A stretch of DNA of 4,377 bases from a virus. Its lineage: Duplodnaviria; Heunggongvirae; Uroviricota; Caudoviricetes. The first letter of the stretch is position 1. Every line of letters begins with the position of its first letter. Both the position numbers and the translations under genes were made by a program. Location: IMG/VR virus record IMGVR_UViG_2579778674_000005. The stretch is one strand, 5' to 3'. The notes below the pieces were generated by a model. That model saw nothing but the letters and a program-made list of their open reading frames with translations, was not told the DNA's origin and searched no databases. This document shows positions 1-4,377 of this stretch, one piece after another.

Positions 1-57
1 GAGATCAGCACGGCAGACGAAGGGGACGGTGGTCAGGTTGTGGTGATTGGTCGCTGA
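1..57 (+). CDS. I: 3' end of tail assembly protein I (lambda gpI-like); 5' end lies outside the window
   Basis: Frame 1 is open from position 1 to TGA at 55-57 and translates EISTADEGDGGQVVVIGR*. It ends 60 nt upstream of the J start, matching the I-J spacing and gpI C-terminus I recall for lambda. Recollection, not an alignment. Confidence 0.7.
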   Translation, partial: EISTADEGDGGQVVVIGR

Positions 58-75
58 TGAAAAACGTTTTATGTG

Positions 76-103
76 AAACCGCCTCCGGGCGGTTTTGTCG
101 TTT
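76..103 (+). other. Intergenic stem-loop (8-bp stem AAACCGCC / GGCGGTTT, 4-nt loop TCCG) followed by a T-rich tract; possible weak terminator, attenuator or mRNA stability element between I and J
   Basis: Read directly: gAAACCGCCtccgGGCGGTTTtgtcgttt. The inverted repeat is perfect and is followed by TTTTGTCGTTT. Function not established. Confidence 0.3.
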
Positions 104-104
104 A

Positions 105-109
105 TGGAG
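105..109 (+). promoter_or_regulatory. Shine-Dalgarno-like sequence (TGGAG) for J
   Basis: TGGAG lies 8 nt upstream of the J ATG at 118-120; an additional GAGG sits at 113-116. Confidence 0.45.
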
Positions 110-117
110 CGTGAGGA

Positions 118-282
118 ATGGGTAAAGGCAGCAGTAAGGGGCATACTCCGCGCGAAGCGAAGGACAACCTGAAGTCCACGCAGTTGCTGAGTGTGATCGA
201 TGCCATCAGCGAAGGGCCGGTTGAAGGTCCGGTGGATGGATTAAAAAGCGTGCTGCTGAACAGTACGCCGGTGCTGGACTGA
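118..282 (+). CDS. J: J N-terminal fragment (54 codons) ending at the premature in-frame TGA
   Basis: ATG at 118 with an upstream SD; translation MGKGSSKGHTPREAKDNLKSTQLLSVIDAISEGPVEGPVDGLKSVLLNSTPVLD*; TGA at 280-282 lies inside a 12-nt insertion. Confidence 0.6.
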   Translation: MGKGSSKGHTPREAKDNLKSTQLLSVIDAISEGPVEGPVDGLKSVLLNSTPVLD

Positions 283-291
283 GTGCTGGAC
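271..291. repeat. Short tandem duplication: GTGCTGGAC, TGA, GTGCTGGAC (net 12-nt insertion relative to the contiguous reading)
   Basis: Read directly: ccgGTGCTGGACtgaGTGCTGGACactgag. The encoded VLD tripeptide is repeated around a TGA codon. Confidence 0.8.
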
Positions 292-1692
292 ACTGAGGGG
301 AATACCAACATCTCCGGCGTCACGGTGGTGTTCCGGGCCGGTGAGCAGGAGCAGACACCGCCGGAGGGATTTGAATCCTCCGGCTCCGAGGCGGTGCTGG
401 GTACGGAAGTGAAATACGACACGCCGATTACCCGGACCATCACGTCGGCAAACATCGACCGTCTGCGCTTTACCTTCGGTGTGCAGGCACTGGTGGAAAC
501 CACCTCAAAGGGGGACCGGAATCCGTCGGAAGTCCGCCTGCTGGTTCAGATCCAGCGTAATGGTGGCTGGGTGACGGAAAAAGACATCACCATTAAGGGC
601 AAAACCACCTCGCAGTATCTGGCCTCGGTGGTGGTGGGTAACCTGCCGCCGCGCCCGTTTAATATCCGGATGCGCAGGATGACGCCGGACAGCACCACAG
701 ACCAGCTGCAGAACAAAACGCTCTGGTCGTCATACACCGAAATCATCGATGTGAAACAGTGCTACCCGAACACGGCACTGGTCGGCGTACAGGTGGATTC
801 GGAGCAGTTCGGCAGCCAGCAGGTGAGCCGTAATTATCATCTTCGCGGGCGCATTCTGCAGGTGCCGTCGAACTATAACCCGCAGACGCGACAATACAGC
901 GGTATCTGGGACGGAACGTTAAAACCGGCATACAGCAACAACATGGCCTGGTGTCTGTGGGATATGCTGACCCATCCGCGCTACGGCATGGGGAAACGTC
1001 TTGGTGTGGCGGATGTGGATAAATGGGCGCTGTATGTCATCGGCCAGAATTGCGACCAGTCGGTGCCGAACGGCTTTGGCGGCACGGAGCCGCGCATCAC
1101 CTGTAACGCTTACCTGACCACACAGCGCAAGGCGTGGGATGTGCTCAGTGATTTCTGCTCGGCGATGCGCTGTATGCCGGTATGGAACGGGCAGACGCTG
1201 ACGTTCGTGCAGGACCGACCGTCGGATAAGGTGTGGACCTATAACCGCAGTAATGTGGTGATGCCGGATGATGGCGCGCCGTTCCGCTACAGTTTCAGCG
1301 CCCTGAAAGACCGCCATAATGCCGTTGAGGTGAACTGGATTGACCCGAACAACGGTTGGGAGACGGCGACAGAGCTTGTTGAAGATACGCAGGCCATTGC
1401 CCGTTACGGTCGTAATGTCACGAAGATGGATGCCTTTGGTTGTACCAGTCGGGGGCAGGCACACCGAGCCGGGCTGTGGCTGATTAAAACGGAACTGCTG
1501 GAAACGCAGACCGTGGACTTCAGCGTGGGTGCGGAAGGGCTTCGCCATGTACCGGGGGATGTCATTGAAATCTGCGATGATGACTATGCCGGTATCAGCA
1601 CCGGCGGGCGCGTGCTGGCGGTGAACAGCCAGACCCGGACACTGACGCTCGACCGTGAAATCACGCTGCCAAGCCGGGCTGTGGCTGATTAA
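283..1692 (+). CDS. J: J internal fragment (frame 1), from just after the premature TGA to the stop created by the duplication frameshift
   Basis: ORF from the supplied track (GTG at 283). Its translation continues the gpJ sequence (…[33 protein letters not shown]…) and terminates at TAA 1690-1692 inside the second repeat copy, read out of frame. Whether it is translated independently is unknown. Confidence 0.7.
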
Positions 1693-1876
1693 AACGGAAC
1701 TGCTGGAAACGCAGACCGTGGACTTCAGCGTGGGCGCAGAAGGGCTTCGCCATGTACCGGGCGATGTCATTGAAATCTGCGATGATGACTATGCGGGCAT
1801 CAGCACCGGCGGGCGCGTGCTGGCGGTGAACAGCCAGACGCGGACACTGACGCTCGACCGTGAAATCACGCTGCCA
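1467..1876. repeat. Imperfect direct tandem repeat, 2 x 205 nt (copy 1 1467-1671, copy 2 1672-1876), 199/205 identical
   Basis: Manual alignment of the two copies at a fixed 205-nt offset, with no gaps. Mismatches lie at 1530, 1533, 1557, 1590, 1593 and 1635 (copy-1 coordinates). Both copies encode the same peptide, [68 protein letters not shown], in different frames. Confidence 0.9.
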
Positions 1877-3814
1877 GCCTCCGGCACCACGCTGATAAGC
1901 CTGGTTGACGGGCAGGGGAGTCCGGTCAGCGTGGAGGTTCAGTCCGTCACCGACGGCGTGAAGGTAAAAGTGAGCCGGGTTCCTGACGGTGTTGCTGAAT
2001 ACAGCGTGTGGGGGCTTAAGCTGCCGACGCTGCGCCAGCGCCTGTTCCGCTGCGTGAGTATCCGTGAGAACGACGACGGCACGTATGCCATCACTGCCGT
2101 GCAGCATGTGCCGGAGAAAGAGGCCATCGTGGATAACGGGGCGCACTTTGACGGTGATCAGAGCGGCACGGTGAATGGTGTCACGCCGTCAGCAGTGCAG
2201 CATCTGACCGCCGAAGTCACTGCAGACAGCGGGGAATATCAGGTGCTGGCGCGATGGGACACGCCGAAGGTGGTGAAGGGGGTGAGCTTTATGCTTCGCC
2301 TGACTGTGGCAGCAGACGACGGCAGTGAGCGGCTGGTCAGCACGGCCCGGACGACGGAAACCACATACCGCTTCACGCAACTGGCGCTGGGAAACTACAG
2401 GCTGACAGTCAGGGCGGCAAATGCCTGGGGGCAGCAGGGCGATCCGGCGTCGGTATTGTTCCGGATTGCCGCACCGGCAGCACCGTCGCGGATTGAGCTG
2501 ACGCCGGGCTATTTTCAGATAACCGCCACGCCGCATCTTGCGGTTTATGATCCGACGGTACAGTTTGAGTTCTGGTTCTCGGAAAAACGGATTGCTGATA
2601 TCAGGCAGGTTGAAACCAGCGCGCGTTATCTTGGTACGGCGCTGTACTGGATAGCCGCCAGTATCAATATCAAACCGGGCCATGATTATTATTTTTACGT
2701 TCGCAGTGTGAACACCGTTGGCAAATCGGCATTCGTGGAGGCTGTTGGTCAGCCGAGTGATGATGCATCCGGCTATCTGGATTTTTTCAAAGGCGAGATA
2801 GGGAAAACCCATCTGGCTCAGGAGCTGTGGACGCAGATTGATAACGGTCAGCTTGCGCCTGACCTGACTGAAATCAGGACGTCCATTACGGATGTCAGCA
2901 ATGAAATCACGCAGACCGTCAATAAGAAACTGGAAGACCAGAGTGCGGCAATTCAGCAGATACAGAAGGTTCAGGTTGATACAAATAATAACCTGAACAG
3001 CATGTGGGCTGTGAAGCTGCAGCAGATGCAGGACGGACGCCTTTATATCGCGGGTATTGGTGCCGGTATTGAGAACACCCCTGACGGCATGCAGAGTCAG
3101 GTGCTGCTGGCGGCGGACAGGATTGCGATGATTAATCCTGCAAATGGCAACACAAAACCGATGTTTGTTGGTCAGGGTGATCAGATATTCATGAATGAAG
3201 TGTTCCTGAAATATCTGACGGCTCCCACCATTACCAGCGGCGGTAATCATCCGGCATTTTCCCTGACACCGGACGGGCGACTGACGGCGAAAAATGCGGA
3301 TATCAGTGGCAGTGTGAATGCTAACGCCGGGACGCTCAACAACGTTACGATAAATGAGAACTGTCAGATTAAAGGGAAACTGTCAGCCAACCAGATTGAA
3401 GGCGATATTGTCAAAACAGTGGGTAAGGCTTTTCCGCGGGACTCCCGGGCACCGGAGCGGTGGCCATCAGGGACCATTACCGTCAGGATTTATGACGATC
3501 AGCCTTTTGACAGGCAAATTGTTATTCCGGCGGTGGCATTCTGCGGCGCTAAACATGAGCGGGAGAATAACGATATTTATTCGTCATGCCGCCTGATAGT
3601 GAAGAAAAATGGTGCTGAAATTTATAACCGTACCGCGCTGGATAATACGCTGATTTACAGTGGTGTTATTGATATGCCAGCTGGTCACGGCCACATGACG
3701 CTGGAGTTTTCGGTGTCAGCATGGCTGGTAAATGACTGGTATCCCACAGCAAGTATCAGCGATTTGCTGGTTGTGGTGATGAAGAAAGCCACCGCAGGCA
3801 TCAGTATCAGCTGA
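1655..3814 (+). CDS. J: J C-terminal fragment (frame 2); the J-homologous part starts at about 1676 and includes FN3-like repeats and a divergent C-terminal receptor-binding region
   Basis: ORF from the supplied track (GTG at 1655). From [14 protein letters not shown]… onward it repeats and then continues the gpJ sequence, ending at TGA 3812-3814. The first 7 codons are not J-derived in this frame. Confidence 0.7.
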
Positions 3815-3832
3815 ATTTTATAACCCATATAC

Positions 3833-3857
3833 GGGCGCCAGAAATGGCGCCTTTTTT
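3833..3857 (+). terminator. Rho-independent terminator downstream of J (lambda tJ-like)
   Basis: A perfect GC stem (GGCGCC / GGCGCC, palindromic) with a 6-nt loop AGAAAT, followed immediately by TTTTTTATT, begins 19 nt after the J stop. On the minus strand the hairpin is followed by CGTATAT rather than a U-tract, so it is oriented for + strand transcripts. Confidence 0.8.
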
Positions 3858-3870
3858 ATTGCAGAAAAGC

Positions 3871-3876
3871 GAGAGG
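3871..3876 (+). promoter_or_regulatory. Shine-Dalgarno sequence (GAGAGG) for lom
   Basis: GAGAGG lies 5 nt upstream of the ATG at 3882. Confidence 0.6.
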
Positions 3877-3881
3877 TAATT

Positions 3882-4377
3882 ATGCGTAAAGTTTGTGCAG
3901 CCATTTTGTCCGCAGCCATCTGTCTGGCCGTATCCGGTGCGCCTGCATGGGCGTCTGAGCAGCAGGCCACACTGAGCGCAGGGTATCTTCATGCCCGTAC
4001 GAACGCTCCCGGCAGCGATAATCTGAACGGGATTAACGTGAAATACCGTTATGAGTTTACGGACACGCTGGGGCTGATTACGTCATTCAGTTATGCCAAC
4101 GCTGAAGATGAGCAAAAAACGCATTACAGCGATACCCGCTGGCATGAGGATTTCGTGCGTAACCGCTGGTTCAGCGTGATGGCGGGGCCGTCTGTGCGCG
4201 TGAATGAATGGTTCAGCGCGTATGCGATGGCGGGTATGGCTTACAGCCGTGTGTCGACTTTCTCCGGTTCGACTTTCTCCGGAGATTATATCCGCGTAAC
4301 TGACAACAAGGGGAAAACGCACGATGTGCTGACCGGAAGTGATGACGGTCGCCACAGCAACACGTCTCTGGCGTGGG
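3882..4377 (+). CDS. lom: Outer membrane protein Lom (Ail/Lom/OmpX/PagC beta-barrel family); 3' end lies outside the window
   Basis: ATG at 3882 with SD; frame open to the window edge with no stop. Translation MRKVCAAILSAAICLAVSGAPAWA|SEQQATLSAGYLHARTNAPGSDNLNGINVKYRYEFTDTLGL… has a typical Sec signal peptide with an AWA cleavage motif and matches lambda Lom as I recall it, in the same position immediately downstream of J. It is absent from the supplied ORF track, presumably because it has no stop in the window. Confidence 0.85.
   Translation, partial: MRKVCAAILSAAICLAVSGAPAWASEQQATLSAGYLHARTNAPGSDNLNGINVKYRYEFTDTLGLITSFSYANAEDEQKTHYSDTRWHEDFVRNRWFSVMAGPSVRVNEWFSAYAMAGMAYSRVSTFSGSTFSGDYIRVTDNKGKTHDVLTGSDDGRHSNTSLAW
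4254..4283. repeat. 15-nt tandem duplication within lom (TCGACTTTCTCCGGT / TCGACTTTCTCCGGA), in frame, encoding STFSG twice
   Basis: Read directly; 14/15 identical, and the single difference (GGT vs GGA) is synonymous. As I recall it, lambda Lom has a single STFSG at this position (…SRVSTFSGDY…). Confidence 0.8.

Follow-up and report, generated by a model that had tools for sequence, protein, structure and literature searches.

A doubled STFSG motif in the prophage lom gene of an Escherichia coli FCH1 draft scaffold is most likely an assembly artefact

The lom gene at the end of a short scaffold of Escherichia coli FCH1 encodes the pentapeptide STFSG twice in a row, and the question raised by this locus is whether the doubling belongs to the prophage or was produced during the assembly of the draft genome. 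The scaffold, called the window hereafter, is the whole stretch of DNA that was analysed. Its 4,377 bp correspond to coordinates 1–4377 of the GenBank record AYKD01000101.1 (GCA_000511545.1), so the window is the complete record; exact look-ups of the two large J fragments led to this contig and to no other. A first-pass annotation had described two adjacent in-frame 15-nt repeats at 4254–4283, differing by one synonymous base and adding a second STFSG. As the cause it had offered either a technical artefact common to the duplications or a replication history prone to slippage. The description was borne out by the sequence itself, by TRF and by the translation. With regard to the cause, the evidence favours the technical artefact. 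The SOAPdenovo origin of the scaffold, the natural alleles present in the copies, the position of contig ends in other drafts and the uniqueness of the doubling make it very likely that the doubled STFSG arose during assembly, as an uncollapsed overlap between contigs, and does not represent a biological variant of Lom.

The window carries the 3′ end of a gene resembling gene I of phage lambda, followed by the tail tip gene J and by lom (Table 1). The same order was observed in H10407, 89-3156, YDC107 and ETEC1738, and there a side tail fibre gene comes next. The fragments of J matched the Pfam families Phage-tail_3, Ig_J, Phage_Tail_Tip and Ig_GpJ_C. Among 5,426 complete E. coli genomes, the nearest relative of the window was a prophage of ETEC H10407, in which an intact J of 3,480 nt (encoding gpJ) precedes an Ail/Lom gene of 199 codons (WP_001233112.1). 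The base-by-base alignment with this prophage showed 30 substitutions, 29 of which were located before position 1310 and none past position 1738. It also showed exactly three insertions in the window, those of 12 and 15 nt given in Table 1 as junctions 1 and 3, and one of 205 nt placed by the alignment at 1531–1735. All three are imperfect tandem copies of the adjacent sequence, in agreement with the earlier remark that several short tandem duplications occur within 4.4 kb. The 12-nt and 205-nt insertions break J, the latter by a frameshift since 205 is not a multiple of three. When 4253–4267 is left out, the segment 1739–4377 is 100% identical to H10407. A 12-nt near-repeat at 211–233 (EGPVEGPV) is native, because H10407 carries the same stretch without a gap.

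Table 1. Position of the genes and of the three junctions in the window.
Feature	Position	Strand	Remarks
Lambda I-like tail assembly protein gene, 3′ end	1–57	+	Alignment to the 3′ part of H10407 ETEC_RS06780 ("tail assembly protein")
Tail tip / host specificity gene J	118–3814	+	Three ORFs: 118–282, 283–1692, 1655–3814
Junction 1, 12-nt insertion	271–282	+	Alignment gap against H10407; GTGCTGGAC at 271–279 and 283–291, TGA between
Junction 2, copy 1 of the 205-nt repeat	1467–1671	+	TRF; 89-3156-type haplotype TGGCTC at six variable sites
Junction 2, copy 2 of the 205-nt repeat	1672–1876	+	H10407/YDC107-type haplotype CACGCG at six variable sites
lom, Ail/Lom family outer membrane beta-barrel	3882–4377	+	First 165 codons as written; runs off the scaffold end
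Junction 3, extra 15 nt	4253–4267	+	GTCGACTTTCTCCGG, first STFSG; alignment gap against H10407; first base is SNP1, G allele
Junction 3, second copy	4268–4282	+	TTCGACTTTCTCCGG, second STFSG; first base is SNP1, T allele; SNP2 (A) at 4283

The repeat in lom consists of an exact 14-mer, TCGACTTTCTCCGG, present at 4254–4267 and again at 4269–4282 with a single T (4268) in between. The segment 4247–4286 thus reads CGTGTG TCGACTTTCTCCGG T TCGACTTTCTCCGG AGAT. It was reported by TRF at 4254–4282 with a period of 15, 1.9 copies, 100% matches and a score of 58, and a repeated 14-mer of this sequence was encountered in none of 200 dinucleotide-preserving shuffles. Since the reading frame of lom starts at 3882, position 4254 is the first base of a codon and the two units are in frame. 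The codons TCG, ACT, TTC, TCC and GGT are followed by the same series ending with GGA, a synonymous change, giving STFSG STFSG. The in-frame length fits selection acting on a real event, yet one in three random lengths would also be in frame. Because T4268 differs from both G4253 and A4283, the 15-mers mismatch at one position whatever the register chosen.

This single difference corresponds to a polymorphism found in nature. Among 84 natural alleles compared as a panel (80 IMG/VR loci and four complete genomes), the site SNP1 (reference position 4036) was polymorphic, with 74 G and 9 T, G being the majority allele (74/83). The site SNP2 (reference position 4051), directly 3′ of the 15-nt unit, was also polymorphic, with 79 G and 4 A. 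All four haplotypes at SNP1/SNP2 exist in the panel (GG in 72 alleles, TG in 7, TA in 3 and GA in 2). The H10407 haplotype is T/A, and the segment 4268–4377 of the window is identical to H10407. The first copy of the repeat carries G at SNP1 and the second copy T, so that both natural alleles are present side by side. As the removal of 4253–4267 restores the identity with H10407, the extra 15 nt represents a fragment of a G allele that extends from SNP1 to just before SNP2.

A slipped-strand duplication is recognised by copies that are identical or randomly mutated, and by microhomology at its boundaries. In the 15-mer, the sole difference sits on the natural SNP at reference position 4036, and no microhomology is shared by the two flanks, the H10407 context being GCCGTGT, then TTCGACTTTCTCCGG, then AGATTAT. 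A genuine in-frame 15-nt slippage duplication in the lom gene of FCH1, followed by a point change or a gene conversion at SNP1, is the alternative that survives best, and we consider it quite unlikely. The sequence is as this alternative would have it, in frame, and the site is in principle tolerant, as part, by alignment, of an extracellular segment of variable length in which Lom of lambda and OmpX differ. The genuine event would however have to produce two non-identical copies whose difference falls on a natural SNP, with both natural alleles represented, within 2.6 kb of surrounding DNA otherwise 100% identical to H10407 and with no flanking microhomology.

It would also have to coexist on the same short scaffold with two more imperfect duplications, both inactivating J. 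At junction 1, the succession GTGCTGGAC-TGA-GTGCTGGAC creates an in-frame stop in J (the sequence across the junction, 274–290, is GCTGGACTGAGTGCTGG). The repeated 9-mer lies between the polymorphic sites at reference positions 270 and 280/281, and the TGA filler matched the natural sequence of neither flank. At junction 2, the two copies of the 205-nt repeat show six differences (2.9%), as compared to one base between the next 2.5 kb and H10407. The six sites are all natural polymorphisms, and both six-site haplotypes occur intact in the allele panel, that of copy 1 (TGGCTC) in two alleles. Copy 1 was 99.5% identical to J of a different allele type, for which 412 records, that of strain 89-3156 among them, reached ≥99%, and the segment 1672–2200, covering copy 2 and its downstream flank, was 100% identical to J of YDC107. 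Along the window, the allele type is H10407-like up to 1530 and 89-3156-like up to 1671. At 1672 the sequence restarts from the position homologous to 1467, this time in the H10407/YDC107 type. On this comparison, the two 205-nt copies read as two different natural J haplotypes placed in series, a pattern which is unlike a duplication in place followed by random mutation and which fits both branches of a fork laid one after the other. The distance from the start of copy 2 to the first site at which the copies differ (1735) is exactly 63 nt, which is also the largest k value tried in the assembly, and copy 1 ends directly before the polymorphic site at reference position 1660.

The boundaries of the segments coincided with variant sites at the three junctions. 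The first base was polymorphic in all three downstream segments, and of the three sites that follow an upstream end, two or three were polymorphic. A naive product of the local SNP densities for the five boundary coincidences amounts to 6e-4 to 2e-3, this calculation being post hoc. When exact offsets of k = 63 were sought between polymorphic sites and the scaffold ends or the other segment ends, the nearest ones were off by one (reference positions 65, 4081 and 4147).

Other draft assemblies break at the same places. The 54-aa N-terminal J fragment which results from the premature stop of the window has entries in 892 blocks of the protein collection, and nine out of ten listed locations were at a contig end. 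These contigs end with GTGCTGGACA or GTGCTGGACAG, at most one base away from the 12-nt insertion (279/280). In the case of lom, partial N-terminal proteins of 127 aa (ending with SRVSTF) and 128 aa (ending with SRVSTFS) belong to clusters of 882 and 3,300 sequences, respectively. Three such lom contigs end with CTTTCTC, CTTTCTCC and CTTTCTCCG; all have the G allele at SNP1, and their ends are 1–3 nt from the end of the upstream segment in the window (CTTTCTCCGG, 4267). Since the contig ends of other drafts match both small insertions, both are at recurring contig-break positions, and the location of the lom junction at such a hot spot further weakens the case for a genuine duplication.

The doubling was found in no other record searched. 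The doubled junction had no unbroken match in the 5,426 complete E. coli genomes, where the best match spanned 563 nt of the 578-nt query, and none in phage records, where the best match showed 93.9% identity, also over a 563-nt span. Four matches to a 66-nt junction query had an apparent "high coverage" and consisted of two overlapping pieces on a single-copy stretch of 47–51 nt. The 20-mer specific to the doubled junction is TTTCTCCGGTTCGACTTTCT (4259–4278 in the window). The length of lom was 199 codons in all of the 80 best IMG/VR loci. In the alignment of Lom cluster representatives, STFSG was single in 25 of 25, and residues S125, F127, S128 and G129 were invariant, which again does not favour a genuine event. 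The doubled protein of 204 aa, completed with the H10407 C-terminus, was absent by exact look-up from about 15 billion sequences, as compared to a cluster of 6,993 sequences containing the single-copy protein, variants lying inside 90% clusters being invisible to these uniqueness searches. A search of GTDB species representatives and IMG/VR with a degenerate sequence covering TCN-type coding of STFSGSTFSG returned 46 matches, all to unrelated low-complexity or repeat proteins, none of which was a Lom.

Internal duplications of another kind do exist in lom. Other singleton Lom proteins from public drafts showed internal duplications of +14, +16, +16, +60 and +76 residues. One Lom protein (P0036), with a translated Nextera mosaic-end dimer inside its duplicated segment, is with certainty a chimera. 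Two others (P0020 in ABADHE010000064.1 and P0027 in DANANB010000083.1) have a duplication of 48 nt, or 16 residues, which is in frame and tandem as in FCH1 and lies one strand earlier than the FCH1 15-mer. The copies are 100% identical, and a native direct repeat of 9 nt, GATGGCGGG, marks their boundaries at a spacing of 48 nt (loci L142 and L143). These duplications recur in two different lom alleles and, at L142, on a contig with an intact J. To judge by these features, real in-frame tandem duplications probably occur in lom, and perfect cases in two unrelated assemblies are a point in favour of a genuine event in FCH1. The FCH1 15-mer nevertheless lacks the slippage hallmarks of the 48-nt cases, as its copies are non-identical and no microhomology is present.

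The way in which the FCH1 genome was obtained is relevant to the preferred reading of an assembly artefact. According to de Been et al. (2014), HiSeq 90-bp paired reads from 500-bp inserts (BioProject PRJNA224245) were assembled with SOAPdenovo v1.05, a short-read assembler of the 2011 era, k values of 21–63 were tried and the version with the fewest scaffolds was kept. The article gives 162 scaffolds, an N50 of 92 kb and a 116× coverage, and its authors mention that the correct assembly of nearly identical multi-copy genes was hampered. In the words of its developers, the original SOAPdenovo handled "heterozygous contigs improperly", and it occasionally made false contig–contig relationships (PMC3626529). 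The same source indicates that GapCloser could make wrong picks among highly similar repeats and that v1.05 did not have the improved gap-closure module. In an independent benchmark, gap closing by SOAPdenovo led to significantly more SNP, indel and misjoin errors, the number of indels in E. coli rising from 4 to 25, and contig edges were often misassembled. We found no explicit published report of SOAPdenovo making tandem duplications, the published statements on heterozygous contigs, false links and gap-closure errors being general.

In the complete E. coli genomes, the region was found at 14,935 places in 4,778 of the 5,426 genomes, with a median of 2 and a maximum of 14 places per genome, and lambdoid prophages matching the window were present in 4,977 of the 5,426. 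The J–lom tail region exists as several near-identical prophage copies in most E. coli. A stand-alone scaffold of 4.4 kb in an assembly with an N50 of 92 kb is the expected product of a repeat, and from this short isolated scaffold and the two alleles inside it we infer that FCH1 itself is multi-copy for the region. The locus thus combines the features by which an assembly artefact is recognised: a multi-copy region on a short-read draft scaffold, copies that carry alternative pre-existing variants with boundaries at variant sites, and junctions at places where assemblers break contigs.

We propose the following scheme for the formation of the three junctions. FCH1 would possess at least two near-identical J–lom copies, and the de Bruijn graph would consequently have been split into contigs wherever these copies differ. 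The scaffolder and the gap filler would then have strung the contigs together, the overlap between adjacent ends going unrecognised. In lom, the upstream contig, with G at SNP1, would stop just before SNP2 and the next contig would open just after SNP1. These two contigs would truly overlap in the 14 nt that separate SNP1 from SNP2, and an end-to-end join with one filled T, the H10407-type allele of SNP1, would yield exactly G-TCGACTTTCTCCGG-T-TCGACTTTCTCCGG-A. Positions 4253–4267 would then correspond to the 3′-terminal 15 nt of the upstream contig, and positions 4268–4282 the 1-nt fill plus the start of a final contig of 109–110 nt. A fork at SNP2 on the G-bearing path would need about three lom alleles in FCH1. 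In J, a branch contig of 205 nt, composed of the 63-mer fork node and 142 nt of one allele, would be followed by the other branch, the contig of the other allele, which opens with the same 63-mer. A 9-nt overlap and 3 filled bases would make up the insertion of 12 nt. This behaviour of SOAPdenovo v1.05, with fills of one and three bases and fork branches placed in series, is a putative reconstruction made from the sequence.

False duplications by mis-assembly are a general phenomenon that Kelley and Salzberg reportedly described in Genome Biol in 2010. When tandem, those arising from mis-assembled near-identical variants place two slightly different versions head to tail, as seen here. The FCH1 scaffold shares with this class the pre-existing variants, the boundaries at branch points of the graph and the short-read de Bruijn origin. 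It differs from it in that the bacterium is haploid, the "alleles" being presumably paralogues from separate prophage copies. A further difference is the very short length of two overlaps out of three (9 and 14 nt, with 3 and 1 filled bases), so that the joins mimic slippage duplications inside coding sequence.

Two further alternatives can be weighed against this scheme. A true recombination event, illegitimate or unequal, between two prophage J–lom copies residing together in FCH1 and leaving hybrid junctions would account for the different natural allele in each copy and for the mosaic structure of the window, in which the substitutions relative to H10407 are confined to the left part. It is nonetheless very improbable, since it would require three independent misaligned exchanges (of 12, 205 and 15 nt) in 4.4 kb with no internal repeats to sponsor them, and it would leave unexplained the non-templated TGA, the 63-nt offset and the coincidence with the contig ends of unrelated assemblies; such a structure was seen in none of the 5,426 complete genomes. 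Equally hard to credit are chimeric reads or library molecules, produced by PCR template switching between lom alleles and faithfully assembled: the adaptor-containing Lom described above demonstrates that library chimeras can reach public lom sequences, but rare chimeric reads should be out-voted at a 116× coverage, and a cause at the level of the assembler accounts better for three events that share one scaffold and each fall on a branch point of the graph.

The protein itself is of a well-known type. The 165-aa lom product matched PF06316 and PF13505, as did all its relatives, and phmmer gave an E-value of 6e-48 with the solved structure of lambda Lom (9wso_C) and of about 1e-19 with OmpX and Ail. 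The assignment of the gene to lom in the Ail/Lom family, already made in the first-pass annotation, is upheld by these matches, and the gene is an ordinary member of this family (PF06316). It is typical of the Ail/Lom/OmpX/PagC/Rck proteins (9wso for lambda Lom, 1qj8 for OmpX and 3qra for Ail), is located 3′ of J in the lambdoid tail module and has a single-copy version of 199 aa. Judged by eye, the N-terminal sequence MRKVCAAILSAAICLAVSGAPAWA resembles a signal peptide. The H10407 homologue terminates with GYKF, beyond the end of the window, and the last strands are missing from the 165-aa product.

In the alignment with OmpX, the first STFSG is opposite residues 91–95 and the second opposite residues 96–100, which we take to be the place where strand 5, at its extracellular end, passes into loop 3. 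The expectation that the insertion would fall in a segment alternating between strand and surface loop was thus supported. In the alignment with lambda Lom, HMMER opens gaps opposite the extra STFSG (SR---WSGSTM--DY), and no family representative has this extra motif. An AlphaFold2 model of the single-copy representative, computed with a 26-sequence alignment, had a mean pLDDT of 43.4 and showed residues 111–135 as one long strand. As this model is too poor to define strand boundaries, the placement rests on the sequence alignments with OmpX and lambda Lom.

Should the duplication be real after all, which is unlikely, FCH1, a human-gut isolate, would make a Lom, a protein of an adhesin family, with a five-residue surface extension at the tip formed by strand 5 and loop 3. 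Strand 5, at its outer end, and loop 3 would both be extended, making an exposed hairpin longer, and such a change would probably be tolerated. An otherwise invariant S-x-F-S-G motif would be doubled, surface recognition would possibly be changed, and the prophage tail region would be subject to frequent small duplications. The artefact being favoured, the suggestion that an altered-loop protein is probably still made is most likely moot.

The window is of interest mainly as a case of data quality, in which a deposited GenBank scaffold would contain three join artefacts resembling slippage duplications. Owing to these artefacts, J would be split by gene callers into three fragments, and Lom would pass for a variant without parallel. 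Singleton Lom "variants" of a similar kind, one with an adaptor inside, sit in public protein collections. In old short-read drafts, short in-frame duplications in multi-copy prophage genes should be checked for alternative natural alleles in the two copies, for boundaries located on SNPs between paralogues and for contig breaks at the same base in other assemblies. For the biology of FCH1 and of the Ail/Lom family, the weight of the finding is small: beneath the doubling, lom is an ordinary prophage gene of this family, and the doubled motif is most likely absent from the bacterium. The real FCH1 gene is expected to be a lom of the usual 199 codons with a single STFSG, next to an intact J.

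The J gene (tail tip/host specificity) of the window is disturbed by two sequence additions (see table). The 205-nt tandem repeat shifts its reading frame, and each copy corresponds to a separate natural J haplotype. The first difference between the copies lies 63 nt past the start of copy 2. This repeat looks like a fork in the k = 63 assembly graph, the two branches of which were set in series. The 12-nt insertion creates an in-frame stop in J after codon 54. The TGA lying between the two motif copies differs from the natural sequence of both flanks, and the ends of many public draft contigs are located at most one base from this insertion. The neighbouring near-repeat is native to J and does not belong to the insertions: the J gene of the ETEC H10407 prophage possesses it as well.

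Repeats and duplications in J and lom.
Feature	Position	Gene	Description
205-nt tandem repeat	window 1467-1876	J	copies 97% identical, six differences
12-nt insertion	window 271-282	J	GTGCTGGAC twice, TGA between
12-nt near-repeat GAAGGGCCGGTT, x1.9 (EGPVEGPV)	window 211-233	J	without gap in H10407 J
48-nt duplication	L142 (ABADHE010000064.1) 5295-5401	lom	perfect, in-frame, 16 residues (MAGPSVRVNEWFSAY-)
48-nt duplication	L143 (DANANB010000083.1) 2197-2301	lom	perfect, in-frame, 16 residues (MAGPSVRVNEWFSAY-)

The scaffold ends at window position 4377 within lom, 2 bases short of a common polymorphic site (ref 4147, G55/A28). This is consistent with a branch point of a further repeat copy; the simple branch-point model misses by one. 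Relative to H10407 there are 30 substitutions, with 29 located before position 1310, one at 1738 and none beyond. The scaffold is a mosaic of allele types (1-1310 versus 1739-4377). It could reflect a genuine prophage mosaicism, or co-resident prophage copies could have been merged into a chimeric consensus.

Duplications were also observed in lom of other drafts. The two contigs with the 48-nt duplication belong to unrelated E. coli drafts, and in both the native direct repeat GATGGCGGG flanks the duplication. The Lom family protein P0026 shows a 42-nt version, located at the TGGTTCAGCG repeat. These duplications may mark a true hot spot of slippage in lom. Three singleton Lom proteins from public drafts (P0016, P0017 and P0036) show internal duplications of 76 and 60 residues, and VSYTHLDVYKRQ in one of them is a translated Nextera mosaic-end dimer; chimeric or mis-joined lom genes therefore exist in public protein collections. 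The structure of phage lambda Lom has been solved (PDB 9wso chain C, 206 aa) and was compared here by sequence alignment. Its coordinates would place the border between strand 5 and loop 3 exactly.
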